From contig CAZXKC010000005.1 in assembly GCA_964641225.1 (NCBI GenBank), positions 32,134 to 96,133 on the forward strand: a stretch of DNA of 64,000 nucleotides, read 5' to 3'. Shown here one piece after another: positions 3,391 through 46,611 of the stretch. Position numbers and translations under genes: made by a program. The stretch comes from an uncultured Candidatus Saccharibacteria bacterium (GTDB lineage Bacteria > Patescibacteriota > Minisyncoccia > UBA6257 > 1-14-0-10-44-23). The notes beneath the pieces are model-generated. The model had not been told where the DNA came from and searched no databases. It was given only the letters and a program-made list of their open reading frames with translations. Every line of letters begins with the position of its first letter. Within the stretch, counting starts at the first letter, position 1.

Positions 3391-3520
3391 GCCCTTTAAT
3401 GTACTATGAGCGCGAATAGCGCACTATATTAAAAAATTGACGGTGTAGTCTGTATTACGATAACGATAGCTCAAGTGTAGCAGACTTTAGAAAAAAGCGC
3501 CGTCTGAATTTCGGCCAGAA

Positions 3521-3966
3521 ATTAGAAAGGGGTCCAGGCAGTGACGCGAGGACCCCTCGGGGGTGCCGCACGCGACTCATCAAGGTTGTGCGATGAGCGG
3601 CGGCGGGGAGAGAAGATTCTGGGTGTGAGGCGCTGTGTTGCGGGCGCAGCGCCTCACGGAGCTAAGTTGCGCGGACCGTCCGCGAACGGAGCTTGTGTGC
3701 AAGGAGGAGCCGCTTGCCTACCCTATGAGAGGAGATCTCGGGAGGTCGGGTGTGCTGCGCACTCCTCCTGCAGGAAACAGAAAGATTCAGGATGTGGGGG
3801 TCTCAGACCGGTCGGACCGCTTTGGGGCACGGCATTGTTGAATTTAGCCCTCGGAGGCCTAGACCAGCCGAGGGTCGGAATTCCAGTGCACTCAGTTTCC
3901 CGCGTGCTGTGCCATCTGCCGTTATACGGAACGATTAGGTCCTTTGTGCGAGACCCCCACGATTTC
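3521..3966. ncRNA. High-GC (~62%) non-coding island with extensive secondary structure; candidate structured RNA of unassigned class
   Basis: No credible ORF; those present are only R/P/G-rich artefacts. Hairpins include GTGAGGCGCTG...CAGCGCCTCAC (11 bp), GGGGTCC...GGACCCC and CCCTCGG...CCGAGGG. The two ends can pair (GGGGGTGCCGCAC / GTGCGAGACCCCC). There are short RNase-P-like strings (GGGGAGAGAAGAUUCUGGG, AACAGAAAG) but no complete P4. Confidence 0.3.
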
Positions 3967-4022
3967 TAAAGATCAGAATATAATTATACGCCTTTTTTAT
4001 AAGGCGTCAAGAAGCGCGATTT

Positions 4023-5683: not shown

Positions 5684-5805
5684 ATCGCTCGGTTCTTTGT
5701 TTTCTGACAGGACTCACCCTTCGGGATTGCCATAAAACAAAGATCCTCTCTCCTACAATTACAAAAGATATACTACCGATTTTTGAGACTTATTGCAATG
5801 TTTGC

Positions 5806-6300
5806 TTGTGCGGGTGTAGACTGACTATGAACCGGCTGAAGTGGTGGCCGGAAGGAGGTGATCATGGCCTGGTTCGGAGGAGAGGGTTCTGGGGGTGGCT
5901 CCGCCACCTACAGACCTCGGAGGATGTTCGATGCCGGGTTCTCTGGTGCTCGCGGGATCAAGCCAGATCCTCTTCCTGCTGGGACCGGCAAGTCGCTGGT
6001 CGGAAGGGCGCACGTGTCCTACGCCTGCTCTGAAAGGCCCTGGGAGGGGCCGGCCGAGTGGGCTCGTCCCACGACGGTCGGCGACCCGCCCGACTGGCAC
6101 AGTCCGTAGGCAGGTCACTGCAGCGAGGGATGCCGGGCGCGCAACGCGCGCCCGGCACTTCGATTTATCCCCTTTGACGATTCTAGTATTTTGCTTTATA
6201 ATTACAACTTACCGGTCAACTGACAGCGGAGTAGGGAAACGGTATCCCGCCACGCTCATAACGTGGAGATAGGACGTTCGACTCGTCTCTCCGCAACCCT
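5806..6300. ncRNA. High-GC non-coding island with tRNA-like 3' end; candidate structured RNA (intron-containing tRNA or other) of unresolved identity
   Basis: No credible ORF. There is a perfect 11-bp hairpin GCCGGGCGCGC-aac-GCGCGCCCGGC. The 3' end has a T-arm-like GGACG-TTCGACT-CGTCT followed by CTCCGCA-A-CCC, which can pair with 5' TGCGGG at 5809-5814. Confidence 0.25.
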
Positions 6301-13249: not shown

Positions 13250-13440
13250 ATTTATTTCACATTTTTTGGGGAAGCAGGTGGAACTCCTGCACAGTACCGC
13301 TACGGTTATAGTCCGAGCGCCAGAATGTGATTAGTCTCACTGTCTTAATCCTCGAGTAAGGATGCCAGGCGGATTCGGTGCTCTCCCCAGAACCCGAAAC
13401 CGACCACCCCTCTATCTCGAGATGGGTGTTTTTATTTTTT
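13250..13440 (+). promoter_or_regulatory. Structured 5' leader (~190 nt) ending in an intrinsic terminator immediately upstream of the 13451 ORF; candidate riboswitch/attenuator of unassigned class
   Basis: An extended -10-like TGgTACACT lies upstream. The leader has GGGGAAGCAGG...ACGGUUAUAGUCCGAGCGCC...CCCGAAACCGAC motifs and ends in hairpin CACCCCTCTATCTCGAGATGGGTG (13405-13428) plus TTTTTATTTTTT. Confidence 0.35.
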
Positions 13441-13450
13441 ACTTTTAATC

Positions 13451-15718
13451 ATGCCGGAGTTACGACAACCACGATTTGAAGATGAGGGAGCTGCAACAAC
13501 TACTTCAGAGCGGCCTTTTAGTGGTGAAACACTCGAAGAAGAATTGGAGCGCTTAGAGCAGGAGAAAGCGCAAAGAGAATTAGAGGATCGTTTAGAGCAA
13601 GAACGACTTGAAGCAGAAGAACGTGCTGCTGAGGTTGCCGAAGAAGAGGAACGGATTCAGGCGGAAGATATCTCTCTTATCGAAGCGCTTGGTTCGGATA
13701 AGGTTGAAGTTCGATTTGTTGATCCGGCTGATAAGGCAACGTATCCGCAAGCCAGCTCAGATGGACCAAGCCACCAGGATAAGTCTGGGGTTCCCGTAGC
13801 AAGTCTGCCGCAACGTTTTATAGATGGTAAAAGTCAGAATCCAGACGGTACGTTTGTGGTTGATGAGCTCATGCGCTTAGGTAATGCATCGCCTGAGGGT
13901 CTTGCTCGCGCGCAAAAGCATGACAATGATCTCAATACTCTGCAGTATCATATTTCGGAACCCTTCAAGTCATTTAATGGTGATGGAAAAATGTGGAGGA
14001 CGATCACTCGCGTTAATGCTAACGGAGAAGAGGTTGCTCGAAATTATGAGATTGCGCTTCCTAAAAAGGAAGCAGAGGAAGATGATAATGGAGACCTGCT
14101 TCCGGGTGGTACCAGTGAAGGATTAGGAAATGCGCTCGATTCAGAGGACGATGAGGTGGTCGAAGATGGTTTGCTGGATCCTAATTCGGACGGGCTCGAA
14201 TCCTTGTGGGCCGCCCAAATTTCAGAGCTCGAAAAAAGTAAGGCCTTGAAAGATGCAGAGACTCAGCGAGTCACTGCGCTGAATGTTTCGCCTACTTTAA
14301 GTGCTACAGAGCCTAATGTTTCTGTCATAGCTGCGCAGATGCCGGTTTCTGAAATTTTTGCCACTGAGCCAGGCGTTTCGGCGCAGCCTGAGGCTATAAA
14401 GACACCATCGTTATTTACTGAATCCTTCGCCAGCGCACCATCTGCAGTCAATACGACCGAAAATTTTGCTCTAGAAACAGATTCATTCACTCTTGAGGTC
14501 GCAAACCTGTCTACGCCGGAAGATTCTGTTATTTCATCTCTGGAGCATTTTGCCAATACAGAACCAGTTGTTAGTCATGAGGCTGCGCCTGGGGCTATTA
14601 AGGTATCATCTCACGAGCTACCAGTAGCTCGTGGAGCAGTTGATCTTGCAGTTGAGGTATCTGCGACAACGAGTGAAATAATTTCAGAGCCGGTAGCTCT
14701 TGTTCCAGAAATTTTAAGTGAAGAGAGTGTCGCGGAAAATTCAATAGCAACAGATGCAGCTTCAGAGATTAGCAATGAGTTTACGATTAATTTTTCGTCA
14801 GGTGATTTATTTAAGCCTGAAATCGTCCTGGCTGAAACGATGACGAACGGCGCGCAGACGCATACAGAGACATTTGCGCAGCCCGTCTTTGAAACACCGA
14901 CGGTTGAATTTGATGTAGCTCCTGAGGAGGCTATTACAGAATCTGCACCTGTTACAGAGCTTCACGAGGACGCAATGCCCTCCATTGAATCAGCCGCAGA
15001 GGTTGCTTCTATTCTATTTCCTAAAGAAAAATCAGTGCCTGTTGAAGTCGTAGCTGTCGCGCCGGAAATTGCCCCCACTCAAGTTGTAGCTATCCCGGCC
15101 GCACCGAGAGAGGCAATTACGCTGACGTTTAAAAAAGATATCGCGCAACCGACTGTTGCGCGCATAGAAGCAACGAAACCTAAGTCCGTTGAGGTTTTGA
15201 AAGATGAAGTGCCAGCGGCTAAGGCAAAAGAAGTGGTGCCCCCCCCAGCAGAGAAGGCAGAACCAATTCGGCTTGTTCGGAATGAAGCAGCCCCTATTCC
15301 AGTTGCCCGTAAGGCTGAACAGAAACATGTTGATCAATCGCCGAATGTACCTTCGGTAGAGAAATCAGCAGGTAGAATTTTGAAATTTGAAGATGCTGTT
15401 GCTAATAAAGAGCGCCGCTCCCCTTCGCTAACACCTGAAATATTAAAAACACCCGTTCAGAAAATTTCGAATCCGCTTGTACGATCAAAAGTCCCAGAGG
15501 CTGTGCAGCGTCGACAGGAGCGTGAGGAGCTCCCGACTTTTGCTTCTTCAGTTGTTCGGGCTCGAGAGGTTGCGCGAGTTACCCAAGAGGTGCACAATTT
15601 CAAGCCGCGTAGTACGGCTGCTCTGTCTGACATAATCTCACAAGAAACTCGAGAGCGGCGTATTCTAGACATAGAAGACCTACCGGAGGTTGGAATCCGG
15701 ATGCTTCGTCGAGCCTAA
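13451..15718 (+). CDS. Large acidic low-complexity protein (755 aa), function unknown
   Basis: Long uninterrupted ORF in an AT-rich genome, E/A/S/T/V/P-rich with an N-terminal E/R coiled-coil-like region. No signal peptide or TM segment. Confidence 0.55.
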   Translation: MPELRQPRFEDEGAATTTSERPFSGETLEEELERLEQEKAQRELEDRLEQERLEAEERAAEVAEEEERIQAEDISLIEALGSDKVEVRFVDPADKATYPQASSDGPSHQDKSGVPVASLPQRFIDGKSQNPDGTFVVDELMRLGNASPEGLARAQKHDNDLNTLQYHISEPFKSFNGDGKMWRTITRVNANGEEVARNYEIALPKKEAEEDDNGDLLPGGTSEGLGNALDSEDDEVVEDGLLDPNSDGLESLWAAQISELEKSKALKDAETQRVTALNVSPTLSATEPNVSVIAAQMPVSEIFATEPGVSAQPEAIKTPSLFTESFASAPSAVNTTENFALETDSFTLEVANLSTPEDSVISSLEHFANTEPVVSHEAAPGAIKVSSHELPVARGAVDLAVEVSATTSEIISEPVALVPEILSEESVAENSIATDAASEISNEFTINFSSGDLFKPEIVLAETMTNGAQTHTETFAQPVFETPTVEFDVAPEEAITESAPVTELHEDAMPSIESAAEVASILFPKEKSVPVEVVAVAPEIAPTQVVAIPAAPREAITLTFKKDIAQPTVARIEATKPKSVEVLKDEVPAAKAKEVVPPPAEKAEPIRLVRNEAAPIPVARKAEQKHVDQSPNVPSVEKSAGRILKFEDAVANKERRSPSLTPEILKTPVQKISNPLVRSKVPEAVQRRQEREELPTFASSVVRAREVARVTQEVHNFKPRSTAALSDIISQETRERRILDIEDLPEVGIRMLRRA

Positions 15719-17739: not shown

Positions 17740-19020
17740 ATGTCGTATGTAACTATTGGTATAAATGAATATCGCAGTAAAAAGGTGCCGATTCAGTCGC
17801 GCGAAACTGACCGGCTGCGCCACATGTACATGATCGGTAAAACCGGCGTGGGCAAATCAACCGTGTTTCAAAGTATGTGTTTGCAGGACATCAAGAGTGG
17901 TCAAGGAACCTGCTTTATCGATCCACACGGTGAATCGATTGATTGGTTACTTAAACGTATTCCCGCGGAGCGACTCGAGGACGTCATTTTGTTTGACCCC
18001 AGCGATACTGAGTTCCCTTTTGGGCTTAATTTGCTTGAGGGTCACACCGAGCAGGAGAAAGATTTCCTTGTTTCGGAGTGTATTCAGATTTTTTATAAAT
18101 TATTTGATCCGGAGAAAACCGGTATTATCGGCCCACAATTTGAGCACTGGCTGCGTAATGCCGCTTTGACAGTAATGGCCGGCCCTGAGGGTGGCAGCAT
18201 TATTGAGATTCCAAAATTATTTGTTGATAAGGAATTTGAGATGAGCAAACGCAAGCATTTGACCGATCCTCTCGTGATTGATTTTTGGACAAAGCAGATG
18301 ACCAAGACCTCTGATTTTCACAAGAGTGAAATGCTCAACTATTTTATGAGTAAGTTTGGCCATTTTATGAACAACGCGCTGATGCGCAACATTATTGGTC
18401 AGCATCAGAGCAGTTTTAGTTTTGATGAGGTTATGAGTGGCAAAAAAATATTGCTCGTAAATCTTTCAAAAGGAAAAATTGGCGAGATGAACGCGCATAT
18501 GCTTGGTCTGATTCTTATCTCGAAGCTTCAGGCGGCAATCCTCAAGCGTGCTAATCAACCAAGCGCAGATAGATCTCCGTTCTATTTGTACGTAGATGAG
18601 TTTCAAAATTTTGTCACCGATACCTTTGTCAGTATTTTGAGTGAATCCCGAAAATACGGACTTGGGGCGCATATTACGAATCAATACTTGGCGCAGTTGC
18701 CGGAAAAAATTAAAGACGCGGTGCTCGGCAACGTGGGTACGCTGCTTTCGTTTGAAGTCGGAGCTGAAGATGCCGAATTGTTATCAAAAGAATTCGAGCC
18801 GCTTGAGCCGGCTGATTTTATGGGGCTGCCGCGCTACAACTTTTATATTAAGCTCATGGTCAACGGTAAAACGAGTCCAGCATTTTCTGGTGTGAGCATT
18901 GCTCCGGAGGCTGCTTATGATTCCGGTCTTATGGAACAAAATGTATTCACCCTCAATCGCCTTGCCTTCGGCTCGCCGCGATTACTTGTTGAGCAGCAGA
19001 TAAAGAATCAATTGCAGTAA
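17740..19020 (+). CDS. P-loop NTPase of the DUF87 / TraD-TraG (type IV secretion coupling protein-like) family, soluble form
   Basis: Walker A MIGKTGVGKST, Walker B LYVDEFQNF, and conserved T4CP-like segments (FIDPHGE, FGLNLLEG). No TM helices. Confidence 0.55.
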   Translation: MSYVTIGINEYRSKKVPIQSRETDRLRHMYMIGKTGVGKSTVFQSMCLQDIKSGQGTCFIDPHGESIDWLLKRIPAERLEDVILFDPSDTEFPFGLNLLEGHTEQEKDFLVSECIQIFYKLFDPEKTGIIGPQFEHWLRNAALTVMAGPEGGSIIEIPKLFVDKEFEMSKRKHLTDPLVIDFWTKQMTKTSDFHKSEMLNYFMSKFGHFMNNALMRNIIGQHQSSFSFDEVMSGKKILLVNLSKGKIGEMNAHMLGLILISKLQAAILKRANQPSADRSPFYLYVDEFQNFVTDTFVSILSESRKYGLGAHITNQYLAQLPEKIKDAVLGNVGTLLSFEVGAEDAELLSKEFEPLEPADFMGLPRYNFYIKLMVNGKTSPAFSGVSIAPEAAYDSGLMEQNVFTLNRLAFGSPRLLVEQQIKNQLQ

Positions 19021-20831: not shown

Positions 20832-22925
<2,094 letters not shown>

Positions 22926-23027
22926 CTATATATTCTAGCGTTTTCTGAGCGGATAAGCCATTGACTAGAGGGGCGTGAAAATGATACATAAGTACGTGGA
23001 CAAGAGACAAAACCAAGGAGGGTTCTA

Positions 23028-23384
23028 ATGTCCAAGTTTGTCACGCAGTCGGATCAGGAGGTCACGGTTACGGCACGGGTCGGCGAAACGGCGACTCTGC
23101 ATCTGAAGGGCGCCAGAATGACGGCCGCAATCTTGATGATGGCCTCGAACTTTCTTCGAGCCGGGTGCCCCGTGCAGTTGATCGGTCACGGATTTTGGGC
23201 TCCGAACGAAGATCGCGGAGACGAGCGTAGGGGTATTGAGGAGCAGTTCGGCGCGCTGGCTTGCGGCACCGAGGAGTTCTCGGTCACCGCGCGCGGACCT
23301 CAGGCAGGCACCAAGGGGCACCATTACGGCAGCTTCGTCGTGACGCGTCGTGGTGGTAGTTCCCACGAGCGGGAGATGGATTAA
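23028..23384 (+). CDS. High-GC (~64%) small hypothetical protein (118 aa) with strong SD; foreign cassette
   Basis: AAGGAGG lies 6 nt upstream of the ATG. GC is far above the neighbouring genes. A possible TTGACT -35 is at 22961. A terminator follows directly. Confidence 0.5.
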   Translation: MSKFVTQSDQEVTVTARVGETATLHLKGARMTAAILMMASNFLRAGCPVQLIGHGFWAPNEDRGDERRGIEEQFGALACGTEEFSVTARGPQAGTKGHHYGSFVVTRRGGSSHEREMD

Positions 23385-23390
23385 GTACGA

Positions 23391-23434
23391 CCGCGCCTTT
23401 CGGAGTCATTCCGAAGGGCGCGGCTTCTTTTTTT
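23391..23434 (+). terminator. Intrinsic terminator CCGCGCCTTTCGGA-gtcat-TCCGAAGGGCGCGG + CTTCTTTTTTT
   Basis: 13/14-bp stem followed by a T-run immediately after the 23384 stop. Confidence 0.7.
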
Positions 23435-24302
23435 ATACAAGGGAGAAGTACCACCGCGCGAGCACTTCACCATAAAATACGGCTACAAAAAATCCAATTA
23501 CAAGAAATGGACCAAAAGGTACGGCGGCTTTCATAGTGGCGCGCCGACGAGCGATCAAGAGCAGTCCTACCACTGAACCAATTACGAAGGCGGCTGCAAA
23601 GGCAATAATTGAGTCTGGCCAACCAAGAATAAGTGCCAGCGGAATAGCAAGCTTTACATCTCCCATCCCCATCCCCCGTTCTTTTGTTAAGAAGACTATG
23701 CCGCCAAAAATAAGTAGTGCGACTCCTGCTGCAATCAGTGCGCTTATCATTGGAGAATCGGGCGCGCCAAGTGTTGCACCGTAACTACCAAGAAAGCTTT
23801 GATATGGTATAAGTCCAAGAGATTTGATGGTGATCAGAACGATGCCGATTAGGCCGAGTAATATATTAGATTGATCGGGAATCAGTTGAAGTCGTAGATC
23901 GATCGCTGACAGTGTGATGCAGGTGTAGGTAGCTACGAGCCAGAGGCCGATGGTGAGATAAATCCAGATGAGTGAGTGGTCCTGTGACAGTAGCGAAATT
24001 CCTGCCAGATGACGAAATAAAAAGAATGGGAGTATCGCAGTCAGGAGGCCTGTAATTAATTCAATGAGCGGATACTGCCAACGAAGTGGTTTTTTGCAGC
24101 CGCGACAGGCACCGCACTGAATCACAAAGCTAATAATGGGAATTAACTCATACCAGTGCAGCACTTTTTTGCAGTGCATGCAGTGCGATCGCCCTTGTAC
24201 GCGTTTCGTGAAAAAAATAGACTGACCATCTTCGTATCGAAGCGACAGGACATTGATAAAGCTGCCGATTGCAACACCGAAGATAAAAAGAATAGCCCAC
24301 AT
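23433..24302 (-). CDS. pilD: Prepilin peptidase (type IV leader peptidase/N-methyltransferase, A24 family)
   Basis: N-terminal CxxC...CxxC zinc motif (CMHCKK...CGACRGC) and the multi-TM A24 peptidase core with conserved Asp residues. Confidence 0.85.
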   Translation of the reverse strand: MWAILFIFGVAIGSFINVLSLRYEDGQSIFFTKRVQGRSHCMHCKKVLHWYELIPIISFVIQCGACRGCKKPLRWQYPLIELITGLLTAILPFFLFRHLAGISLLSQDHSLIWIYLTIGLWLVATYTCITLSAIDLRLQLIPDQSNILLGLIGIVLITIKSLGLIPYQSFLGSYGATLGAPDSPMISALIAAGVALLIFGGIVFLTKERGMGMGDVKLAIPLALILGWPDSIIAFAAAFVIGSVVGLLLIARRRATMKAAVPFGPFLVIGFFVAVFYGEVLARWYFSLV

Positions 24303-31278: not shown

Positions 31279-31449
31279 GTTCTACCCTGCTTTCTGTGTA
31301 GGGTCCTTAAAAAAACGAAAGGCACCACAAGGCGCCTAAATCAATACTAGCAAAAAAAGTTAACAAAATCAATTGGAGTTCAAAAATGAGTTAGGACCCT
31401 CTTACGCGGGGTCCCTTTACGGCTCCTTGTGGGAGCGGTGCTGCGACGA

Positions 31450-31791
31450 CTACTCGCTCGCCGGCGCCTCGAGAGGCGGTATCGGACCGTCGTAGTCGGT
31501 CACCGTGAACTCGACGTAGGCGCTGGTCTTCGGATCGCTCGTGACGCAGAGCATGTGCCCCTTCGTGGTGATGGTCAGCACGTAGTCGAATGATGTGCCG
31601 TTCCCCTGGGCCTTGACGGACTGGATCCGGGAAGTCCGACCCGGTCCGGTGTTGTCGGGAATGGATTCCACCGTCAATTCGGCATCTCCTCCAGCCAGGA
31701 GGATCTTGCCCTGCACACGGACCGCTCGCGTATTTGCCGCGAAGATCGGGTGCTTCTGGGCACCGGGAGGTATCAGGAAACAGTGCTGCAT
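31450..31791 (-). CDS. High-GC (~62%) small hypothetical protein (113 aa); foreign cassette
   Basis: ATG at 31789-31791 (MQHCFLIPPG...) is preceded by AAGGAG. The track's 31848 GTG start reads through the SD. A TTGCAA-17/18-TATAAT promoter lies at 31902-31931 (minus strand). A terminator hairpin GGGACCCCGCG...GGGTCC + T-run lies downstream (31385-31420). Confidence 0.5.
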   Translation of the reverse strand: MQHCFLIPPGAQKHPIFAANTRAVRVQGKILLAGGDAELTVESIPDNTGPGRTSRIQSVKAQGNGTSFDYVLTITTKGHMLCVTSDPKTSAYVEFTVTDYDGPIPPLEAPASE

Positions 31792-31972
31792 CGCACACAA
31801 CTCCTTCTGTTCCACGATTTCTAGCCTCCTAGAATATATGTGAAGCACGAATGTGCTTACTTTTTACATACACAAAATAAGCCAGATTTAAGTGGATACA
31901 TATTATAAACATATTTTAAAATTATTTGCAATAAATCGAGTTCTTAAGCTCCTGATACGAGAATTCTTTCTA

Positions 31973-44292: not shown

Positions 44293-44339
44293 TACTTAAG
44301 CATCGCAAGAATGGTCTTTGCGCGCAAGGCAGCAATCTA

Positions 44340-44368
44340 TTGACAAAAGAGTGTTTCGGAGGTATAAT
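44340..44368 (+). promoter_or_regulatory. Consensus sigma70 promoter TTGACA-17nt-TATAAT driving the high-GC DUF218-like gene; 10-bp palindrome TTGCGCGCAA immediately upstream
   Basis: Exact -35 (44340-44345) and -10 (44363-44368) hexamers with a 17-nt spacer. AGGAGGG RBS sits 7 nt before the ATG at 44448. Confidence 0.55.
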
Positions 44369-44447
44369 ACTATCCTCTACGGAAGCTGCGATACTGATCG
44401 CATGCATGACCCGTGGAAAGAGAAAATAGGTAGCAGGAGGGTGCGGA

Positions 44448-45137
44448 ATGCCGATTGGACCGGACATCAACAAAGACCCCGACCCGCGTGACGCAGGGGC
44501 CGAGGTCATGGCGTACTGCATGTGGCCGGACAAGATCCGGAGCATGCGCCTACAGCCCGACGTCATCGTCGTCTACACGGGCGACGGGCGTCGGCTCGCC
44601 ACCGCCGCCATCCGCCGCGCTCGGGAGTACCCGAACATCCCCGTCTTCATCGTCGGGCCCGACAGCCTGATGGCGAGCGAGCTGGACGGCCAGATGAACG
44701 CCGAACACCTCAAGGCCGAGATGGTGGGGCATGGAATCGCGGCCGGCCGGATCATCACCGATTCGAGCCCGCAGAGCATCTACACCCACGGCCAGGCCAA
44801 CCAGGCGGCCGTGCGCTTCCGGGAGGAAACCTGGGCCACCATGCTGCTGATCACCAGTCAGCACCATGCGTACCGGGCGTTCATGATCACCCTGGGCGTC
44901 TTCAGCCGGGAAGGCCTGGCCGACCGGGTCGTCATCGTGCCAGACTCCGTCTACGAATTCGGTTTCGGCGAGCACCCGGCGGAATGGAGCGAGGAGTGGC
45001 GACGCCACACTCCCTGGGTCTGTCTCGTTCGGGACGGGATTCCAAAGGTCAGAAGCGGGCAGGAGAAGCACCCGCAGAACTTCGCGCAGAGCGACGTCGC
45101 ACAGCAGTACGTCAGACGCATCACCGCCAAGCTGTAA
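44448..45137 (+). CDS. High-GC (~65%) DUF218/YdcF-like family protein; foreign cassette
   Basis: 229 aa. The conserved DUF218 core is (V)IVVYTGDG...IPVFIVGPDS. It is followed by terminator AAGAGGAGCGG...CCGCTCCTCTT + TTTTTT (45148-45212). Confidence 0.55.
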   Translation: MPIGPDINKDPDPRDAGAEVMAYCMWPDKIRSMRLQPDVIVVYTGDGRRLATAAIRRAREYPNIPVFIVGPDSLMASELDGQMNAEHLKAEMVGHGIAAGRIITDSSPQSIYTHGQANQAAVRFREETWATMLLITSQHHAYRAFMITLGVFSREGLADRVVIVPDSVYEFGFGEHPAEWSEEWRRHTPWVCLVRDGIPKVRSGQEKHPQNFAQSDVAQQYVRRITAKL

Positions 45138-45224
45138 CAGGGGTATGCGTCGGATGGCAGCACAAGAGGAGCGGAAAGTTACGTGAAGTTTACACGTACG
45201 CCGCTCCTCTTGCCTTTTTAATAA

Positions 45225-45253
45225 TTGACTTTTGTTTTTAATAATGCTATAAT
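45225..45253 (+). promoter_or_regulatory. Second consensus-type promoter TTGACT-17nt-TATAAT upstream of the HIT-like ORF
   Basis: -35 at 45225-45230, -10 at 45248-45253. Confidence 0.5.
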
Positions 45254-45441
45254 AGCACTCCGTCAAGTAGATCAGGATTTCCTATTTCACTAACAAGGGA
45301 GATTGTCTCATCGGCACGAAATGGACGTATCGTACGCCTGCCACTCAGGCGGCCTACGACGCAGCACGAGCCTCCGGCACACCGGGAACCGATCCGTTCG
45401 GTGACTGGGCGGAGAGATCCCTCCGATCATTCACCTACTGG

Positions 45442-45681
45442 GTGATCGTCCCGAACAAGTACCCGATGGACGAGATCGCCGCGACGAACCACCTCTTGAT
45501 CCCGAAGCGACCATTCTCGACCGAGGACGAGATGACGCCGGAGGAGCAGCAGGAACTGCGTGAGATCAAGCAGGTGCTGGCCCACGAGCGCGAGTACGAC
45601 TTCATCCTCGAGAACTTTCCCGTCCGACGATCGGTGATGCTGCGGTGGCACCTGCACCTAGTGACCGCCAAGGACACCTGA
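45442..45681 (+). CDS. High-GC HIT-like (histidine-triad-like) domain protein; 5' boundary uncertain (reading frame is open back to 45271 without an ATG/GTG)
   Basis: NHLLIPKRPFSTEDEMTPEEQQEL resembles the HIT xHxLVIPKxH...L..EE region. C-terminal RWHLHLV resembles a degenerate HxHxHxx triad. The track start is GTG at 45442. Confidence 0.4.
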   Translation: MIVPNKYPMDEIAATNHLLIPKRPFSTEDEMTPEEQQELREIKQVLAHEREYDFILENFPVRRSVMLRWHLHLVTAKDT

Positions 45682-45732
45682 TCGCTTCCAGCGAGTTCGC
45701 GCCCCGACCGCAAGGTCGGGGCGCCTTCTCTT

Positions 45733-46611
45733 TTAAAGCGCCTCAATCATTTCTAAGAACGAGGGTACCTCGAGTTTGGTATTAAGATCTTTGACAGTAG
45801 AGAGAACACGGTTTAGTTTTGGTTCGTCATCTTTTTTAATTTCACACGTAATATTGAATTTCTTGGCAAAAACCTGAAGCATTTCGTACTTTGAAACAGT
45901 TGTTGAAAATACATGATAGAGTCCAGACTTTGGATATTTTCCTGGCTCAGACATTATTTTATCGCATACATTGCCAAATTCTTTGGTTGTAATACCGTTC
46001 CAAAAATGATTTGTGTATCCAGTGATTGTTTTGCCGTCCTGCTGCAAAAACCAATCTAATAATCCGGTATGACCCGCTAGTTCGCGCCCAATAATCGAAG
46101 TCCGAATAGTCAGGCACTCGGTCGGCTCGCCTAGACTCTTGGAGAGACCGTAAATATCAACAGGGGTCTTAGGAGAATTTTCGTTGTAAGGGAAACCCGT
46201 CTTGCCGTCAAAGGCGCAATCAGTTGTAATATGGATCAATTTGGAGCCCAGCTCGCGGGCAAGCACATGAGGCAAAGCACCGTTAATAAAAAACGTTAAG
46301 GCTGGGTCTTTAAGCGAAAAAGGAATGGTTACCCCGAGGGCGTTAATAGCGTAATCAAATTCGCCTACAGTTTTAAAAAAGTTTTTTAAATATTCACTTG
46401 GAGATCCTTTCTTTTCAAGAAATTCTTTGTAGAGTATCTCCGCATCAAACGTCGCTACCTTCGCGTTCTGCGCAGTGCCGTATGTATCAGTTAAGAGTTT
46501 TACTTTGCCTTGATCGCGTATAGCCAAAATGAGCTCATATCGGTCTTTAAGCACGCCATATACTGCGCTGCCAAGCATTCCCGTGGCACCAAATAATAGA
46601 ACTTTCTTCAT
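45733..46611 (-). CDS. NAD(P)-dependent sugar-nucleotide reductase, RmlD (dTDP-4-dehydrorhamnose reductase)-like
   Basis: MKKVLLFGATGMLGS Rossmann start, YGLSK catalytic motif, about 290 aa. Start taken at the internal ATG (46611). Confidence 0.65.
   Translation of the reverse strand: MKKVLLFGATGMLGSAVYGVLKDRYELILAIRDQGKVKLLTDTYGTAQNAKVATFDAEILYKEFLEKKGSPSEYLKNFFKTVGEFDYAINALGVTIPFSLKDPALTFFINGALPHVLARELGSKLIHITTDCAFDGKTGFPYNENSPKTPVDIYGLSKSLGEPTECLTIRTSIIGRELAGHTGLLDWFLQQDGKTITGYTNHFWNGITTKEFGNVCDKIMSEPGKYPKSGLYHVFSTTVSKYEMLQVFAKKFNITCEIKKDDEPKLNRVLSTVKDLNTKLEVPSFLEMIEAL

Follow-up and report, generated by a model that had tools for sequence, protein, structure and literature searches.

Morons are units with their own promoter and terminator and a deviating GC content, inserted where two genes lie side by side in relatives (PMC3594210); the concept, for which gene 15 of HK97 serves as the type, is that of Hendrix and Juhala (reviewed in PMC3594210). 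We describe here a segment resembling such a unit, located between the genes for an NAD-dependent DNA ligase (ligA) and a prepilin peptidase (pilD) and carrying an orphan open reading frame of 118 codons (ORF118), in a 64,000-nt stretch of patescibacterial DNA which was analysed as a whole and is referred to below as the window (Table 1). The segment is inserted between genes that are neighbours in relatives, it is foreign in its composition and expression signals, and its reading frame has periodicity of the coding type and encodes a protein that is an orphan in public data. In our assessment it is probably recently acquired foreign DNA, a moron-like orphan cassette that makes up one complete monocistronic unit, and the insertion looks like a lineage-specific acquisition, an ordinary kind of event.

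Table 1 Features of the ORF118 unit, of its flanks and of comparable units elsewhere in the window (position 1 is the first nucleotide of the window)
Feature	Position	Strand	Details
ligA (NAD-dependent DNA ligase)	20832..22925	-	Native flank; N-terminus intact
Retained ancestral ligA leader	22926..22962	-	-10 box TAGAAT at 22932-22937, equivalent to the relatives' conserved TAAAAT; alignment A1
Candidate ORF118 promoter, TTGACT-18-TACATA	22961..22990	+	TG at 22982-22983; weak match, read from the sequence
Inserted segment, ~470 bp	22963..23432	+	Alignment A1 against relatives; left boundary approximate
Shine-Dalgarno sequence, AAGGAGG	23015..23021	+	6 nt before the ATG of ORF118
ORF118 (orphan ORF)	23028..23384	+	ATG start; 118 aa; 12.8 kDa; pI 6.5
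Intrinsic terminator	23391..23434	+	Stem 23391-23423, 15 pairs (10 G-C), 3-nt loop, then CTTCTTTTTTT
pilD (prepilin peptidase A24)	23433..24302	-	Native flank; Pfam A24_N_bact and Peptidase_A24; C-terminus and stop intact
Unit between two tRNA-Met genes	5790-6175	+	14-nt perfect anti-16S match GGAAGGAGGTGATC directly before ATG 5864
Orphan unit beside tRNA-Ala	31380-31960	-	AGGAGG Shine-Dalgarno sequence at 31830; GTG 31815 or ATG 31791; terminator ~31400-31425
44.3-45.7 kb island, two tandem units	44293-45735	+	Each unit with a consensus sigma-70 promoter and a hairpin terminator

Both neighbours of ORF118 lie on the strand opposite to it and belong to a block of gatCA, ligA, pilD, pilT/B, pilM, comF and P-type ATPase genes, the order of which is kept in relatives. 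Synteny was established through exact look-ups of the contigs of the closest LigA homologues, the nearest named of which are labelled Patescibacteria group, Parcubacteria group or Paceibacterota; scanning GTDB species representatives for ligA yielded none but distant loci with Chloroflexota-type or Deltaproteobacteria labels (37–45% identity) and was useless for this purpose. The order pilM, T2SSE ATPase, pilD, ligA was found in the contigs of four relatives (LigA 65–76% identical), in all of which pilD and ligA share a strand. The gap between the two genes was 39 bp in P0004 (LigA 76% identical to that of the window), 39 bp in P0006 (contig L011; 68%), 54 bp in P0007 (L014; 65%) and 35 bp in P0011 (L015; 66%), compared with 507 bp in the window, and no relative carried the ORF118 gene. 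An earlier sequence-only reading of this DNA had proposed that the gene was inserted on the opposite strand between ligA and pilD and had suggested looking for direct adjacency of the two genes in homologous genomes; the gaps of 35–54 bp in the four relatives bear out this proposal. In P0005 (LigA 74%), ligA has a different upstream neighbour.

Alignment of the locus with its counterparts (alignment A1) placed the boundaries of the insert. The last codons and stop of pilD, as well as the start of ligA and ~37 nt of its leader with the −10 box, align with four relatives; the ORF118 insert is absent from L011, L014 and L015, and unrelated sequence occupies its place in L010. The latter contig belongs to the closest relative, P0003 (LigA 77%), in which pilD and ligA are separated by 277 bp of non-coding DNA unrelated to the ORF118 insert. 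In this spacer (L010 4575–4851) a hairpin adjoins the pilD stop, and the strand opposite that of ligA is moderately structured (z = −3.1); Rfam gave no match. The pilD–ligA junction may be an insertion hot spot.

A transposable element, MITE or IS was considered and rejected, there being no terminal inverted repeats at the insert, no second copy in the window and no convincing boundary repeats or target duplications (8-mer direct repeats occurred at chance expectation). No integrase was found within the syntenic block. A 13/14-nt direct repeat, AAGTAC[G/C]ACCGCGC, connects positions 23383–23396 (stop of ORF118 and foot of the terminator) with 23446–23459 in the conserved 3′ end of pilD, and could be due to chance or represent a trace of microhomology from integration. 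Approximately 4 kb from ORF118, a 426-aa protein (17740–19020, +) with weak TrwB, TraG-D_C and DUF87 matches resembles the ATPase of a type IV coupling protein and adjoins a 556-aa ClpB-like AAA protein; both genes are of native composition.

The GC content of ORF118 (61.3%) was well above the window mean of 45.3%, at the 98th percentile of 357-bp windows, and above the 45–47% of the flanking genes; at third codon positions it reached 0.71, as against ~0.43 in ligA and ~0.44 in pilD. GC fractions at the three codon positions were 0.62, 0.50 and 0.71 (chi-square p = 0.004), with G accounting for 0.42 of first positions and A for just 0.08 of third positions, a pattern close to that of the Pfam-supported DUF218 gene in the 44.3–45.2 kb unit. 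The periodicity was weaker than that of other coding islands (p = 0.004 vs 1e-6 to 1e-20). The length of the frame does not exceed chance, as 12% of GC-matched shuffles of the island produced a frame at least as long (p = 0.12); what does exceed chance is the codon-position pattern together with the placement of the Shine-Dalgarno (SD) sequence and terminator. We conclude from the sequence that ORF118 is in all likelihood a protein-coding gene on the plus strand, now or until recently, and its frame follows the pattern expected of a gene from a donor of ~60% GC. The translation is the protein quoted in the earlier reading. An antisense ORF (23025–23366, 113 aa) was rejected as a gene: it displays the mirror image of the codon pattern (GC1 > GC3, C-rich first and third positions), has neither SD sequence nor terminator and matched no family in Pfam, NCBIfam, PHROGs or PADLOC at E ≤ 10. 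An antisense ORF alongside a gene is usual in GC-rich DNA.

The description of ORF118 as a stand-alone, high-GC gene of 118 codons with a strong SD sequence agrees with these figures and with the AAGGAGG motif at its start. The terminator, previously called perfect, is indeed strong, being the strongest of only four hairpin and T-run sites that a strict scan recovered from the 64 kb; it is near-perfect rather than perfect because its stem includes G-U wobbles. The hairpin begins 6 nt past the stop codon, and the T-run overlaps the pilD stop (23433–23435) by 2 nt. Since the last two T's of the run are the complement of that stop codon, the unit abuts pilD without any spacer. The opposite strand of the hairpin has no U-tract. 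With respect to the promoter, the candidate listed in Table 1 was not among the sites called by the consensus scanner, whose own listing gives TTGGCC-17-TATATT at 22906–22934.

Among ~55 ORFs of native composition in the window, no convincing SD sequence was found (core of ≥ 5 nt at 4–11 nt, any start within the first 40 codons), three weak matches corresponding to chance level, and the upstream regions of the relatives' genes likewise had no SD sites. Several native genes, for example ligA and its orthologues, have a −10-like box ~10–20 nt from the start codon. This suggests that the lineage starts translation largely without SD sequences, by SD-independent or near-leaderless initiation, and for that reason the 7-nt SD sequence of ORF118, at ideal spacing, is best seen as an imported feature. 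The unit bears three independent foreign marks, namely its GC content, its SD sequence and its canonical terminator. By extension, SD-bearing genes would provide an easy marker of imports in this lineage.

The ORF118 protein has a GRAVY value of −0.42 and a composition dominated by G, A, E, R and T, with no evident signal peptide or membrane span. A word-indexed search of 5.8 billion proteins returned only the protein itself, and an exhaustive phmmer search of 1.84 billion cluster representatives returned the protein itself and six weak matches. All six are long proteins in which the match is spread over several stretches. P0123 and P0124, the two inspected, were rejected as homologues, since their scores arise from a chance match that is counted once per tandem repeat, different hits covering different parts of the query. 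Not a single family was matched in Pfam, NCBIfam, PHROGs or PADLOC at E ≤ 10, which is in keeping with the earlier statement that the protein has no recognisable domain, and profile searches gave no DNA-binding motif. A sequence search of the PDB yielded HU only (E = 0.42), tblastn against plasmids and phages gave no match, and neither did back-translated scans of metagenome and viral contigs (IMG/VR, JGI). Structure prediction, which the sequence-only reading had recommended, was of no help: the AlphaFold model was unusable (pLDDT 47) and the fold search returned no usable match. ORF118 is a strict orphan in public data. The earlier reading had counted a lack of conservation against its own interpretation, and conservation is lacking in the sense that ORF118 has no homologue at all; with no homologue anywhere to set beside it, it likewise gives no sign of purifying selection.

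The architecture of the ORF118 unit recurs in the window in at least three or four others. The earlier reading had pointed to a signature shared with the 44.3–45.7 kb island, and the island does consist of two units of promoter, high-GC ORF and terminator, with further units present at 31.4–31.9 and 5.8–6.15 kb. The first unit of the island (44.3–45.2 kb) has a perfect TTGACA-17-TATAAT promoter, an AGGAGG SD sequence and a gene with GC3 of 0.87 for a 229-aa, very divergent DUF218 protein (Pfam 3.2e-8). The second (45.2–45.7 kb) has TTGACT-17-TATAAT, a weaker SD sequence (AAGGGAG) and a HIT-like ORF (GC3 0.78) which is open from 45271 without a canonical start before GTG 45442, so that the gene may be in decay or may start at a non-canonical codon. 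The orphan unit at 31.4–31.9 kb encodes a beta-rich protein of ~112–121 aa (GC3 0.79) with no Pfam family and no viral relatives. In the 5.8–6.15 kb unit, an 81-codon Gly/Pro-rich ORF of 67% GC, followed by a perfect hairpin at 6121–6150, has no clear periodicity; it is doubtful that it is coding, and the unit could be an RNA.

The cassette proteins A, B, D and E showed no kinship with one another, local alignment scores being no higher than those of shuffles, and searches with two of the proteins, the DUF218 protein and the 121-aa orphan, revealed no close relatives elsewhere. An attempt to identify a donor through the DUF218 cassette was unsuccessful: among 5.8 billion clusters the protein had no homologue at E ≤ 1e-5, and viral and metagenome scans gave none either. 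No comparable GC islands were seen in ~41 kb of syntenic DNA from relatives, the accessory genes there being of native composition and without SD sequences. Several small, complete transcription units thus seem to have entered the genome from high-GC sources which use SD sequences and have no representative in public data. A stronger proposal we consider unlikely: that ORF118 is no isolated accident but belongs to a set of at least four or five compact, integrase-free cassettes in the 64 kb, all encoding orphan or extremely divergent proteins, which were delivered either by gene flow in one direction, from a partner of high GC content with SD initiation, or by an undescribed depositing mechanism. 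Such a partner could, for example, be the host cell of the patescibacterial episymbiont or the phages of that host, and a depositing mechanism could place whole transcription units into intergenic spacers and beside tRNA genes. Should the look-alike cassettes all derive from one donor, they might help to identify the host or partner of this lineage of Patescibacteria and show how reduced symbiont genomes sample foreign genes.

Two other regions of the window deserve mention. Between an ndh-like gene and pheS, a GC-rich stretch of ~500 nt (3465–4010, +) has no codon periodicity and no match in Rfam, yet its RNA folds far more stably than shuffled sequences (MFE −236.7 vs −202.3 ± 5.8 kcal/mol, z = −5.95). 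With a TTGACG promoter-like site upstream and a hairpin at 3988–4008, it is a candidate for an unclassified large structured RNA, and it served as an internal control for the tests of RNA structure against periodicity that were applied to ORF118. Separately, an AdoCbl-II riboswitch (56 bits; 13257–13330, +) precedes a 755-aa ORF (13451–15718, +) with no Pfam family at E ≤ 0.001, an unusual situation for a gene under B12 control.

In AT-richer genomes a GC-rich island is often an RNA gene, and the ORF118 segment was accordingly weighed as a structured non-coding RNA gene with an incidental ORF. The unit does end in a terminator, and the strongly structured, non-coding island at 3465–4010 sets a precedent within the same window. 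The folding of the whole ORF118 unit was nevertheless modest (z = −2.0) and attributable to the terminator; without it, the transcript body displayed no excess folding (z = +0.41), and Rfam gave no match above noise even at E ≤ 10. Given also the three-base periodicity of coding pattern and an optimally spaced SD sequence and ATG, an RNA gene is highly improbable. We attach just as little credence to an assembly chimera or contamination, in which high-GC reads of another organism would have been joined into the contig. A sharp jump in composition within a metagenome-assembled genome invites that suspicion; however, native sequence continues on both sides of a precisely intergenic insert, several similar units in the window are likewise embedded between native genes, and a separate Logan assembly (SRR14271332) contains a 1073-bp contig, L001, that is 100% identical to window positions 22445–23517 and spans both junctions.

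Function is harder to judge. The segment could be a neutral passenger, foreign and recent but without function in the recipient, and intact only for lack of time to decay; its ORF may then be untranslated or silent, and may later be lost or eroded. We regard this, the main rival to our reading, as possible, if somewhat doubtful. The SD sequence, start, 118 uninterrupted codons and terminator are all intact, which sits uneasily with a passenger, and patescibacterial genomes are small and usually thought to shed useless DNA fast. On the other hand, ORF118 is a strict orphan without conservation in a recipient without SD usage, its promoter match is weak, and confidence in the structure model is low. 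In L010, in addition, this junction is occupied by an unrelated non-coding stretch of 277 bp, which suggests that the site tolerates junk insertions, and the 45.2–45.7 kb unit (D) seems to have lost its canonical start, as would be expected if such cassettes decay. Another view, of a specific accessory function on a mobile cassette, whether as toxin, antitoxin, anti-defence protein or small regulator, had been raised by the sequence-only reading and found no backing here: there is no second ORF to complete a type II pair, no match in PADLOC, PHROGs, Pfam or NCBIfam at E ≤ 10, no DNA-binding motif by profiles and no usable fold-search match, and the adjacent genes are conserved housekeeping and pilus genes rather than phage or defence genes. 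Although a small, stand-alone, foreign and self-expressed gene is circumstantially suggestive, and many phage morons encode such functions (PMC3594210), we rate a specific role of this kind as quite improbable.

Under the preferred reading of a recently acquired, moron-like cassette, the donor would be an organism or mobile element of ~60% GC or more which, unlike the recipient, uses SD initiation and hairpin terminators. The unit would have landed, in opposite orientation, in the short pilD–ligA spacer of a Patescibacteria chromosome of Parcubacteria/Paceibacteria type, leaving its neighbours undisturbed, with pilD keeping its stop and ligA its own −10 box and start. As the block encodes type IV pilus and ComF-like proteins, uptake by natural transformation and then illegitimate recombination would be a reasonable guess. 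Transcription of ORF118 would start in the 102-bp divergent region, from either the TTGACT-18-TACATA or the TTGGCC-17-TATATT candidate, and would end at the unit's own hairpin; translation in the recipient would proceed through the unit's own SD sequence, and here the apparent lack of SD use in the recipient genome seems to count against a functional reading. Because the hairpin has no U-tract on the opposite strand, transcripts of the pil operon may read through antisense to ORF118 towards ligA, which in any case retains a −10 box of its own. The product is predicted to be a small, soluble, probably beta-rich cytoplasmic protein. As to its role, our guess is an accessory protein drawn from the gene pool of mobile elements or phages, niche-specific and dispensable, which may be of some benefit to the cell. 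Whatever the role, the insert offers a clean and datable example, with the empty site known in four relatives, the flanks intact and three signals that the recipient barely uses.

Comparison with described kinds of mobile gene leaves some likenesses and several clear differences. Like an integron cassette, the unit is a compact, single-ORF element followed by an imperfect inverted repeat; unlike one, it has its own SD sequence and promoter-like site, its flanks are ligA and pilD rather than an array beside intI and attI, and positions 23385–23440 form a G+C hairpin and T-run with no attC and no RYYYAAC/GTTRRRY cores. Type II toxin-antitoxin and small anti-defence genes resemble ORF118 in their small size and their association with horizontally moving DNA. 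However, only a single sense-strand ORF lies between the ligA start and the pilD stop, with none in the 102 bp upstream, and no profile of the toxin, antitoxin or anti-defence families matched (Pfam, NCBIfam, PADLOC, E ≤ 10).

The likeness to phage morons goes further: the unit is small and single-gene, lies between genes that are adjacent in relatives, deviates in GC content, has a clear terminator of its own and is an ORFan, as morons often are. In respect of the promoter, it offers only the weak consensus match TTGACT-18-TACATA. It differs in its surroundings, a block of housekeeping and pilus genes whose synteny extends across relatives and near which no phage genes lie, and the question of expression from a repressed prophage does not arise; since it lies in neither a phage nor a prophage, the unit would work like a moron without being one. 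Horizontally acquired ORFans, or genomic islets, share with it an atypical composition, the lack of homologues, absence from sister genomes, an intergenic position and the lack of mobility genes. Compared with these, ORF118 is unusually tidy, with a full set of canonical signals (SD sequence, strong hairpin terminator) that the recipient hardly uses, and it is one of several similar units within 64 kb. The most accurate label for the ORF118 unit is that of a horizontally acquired ORFan islet.
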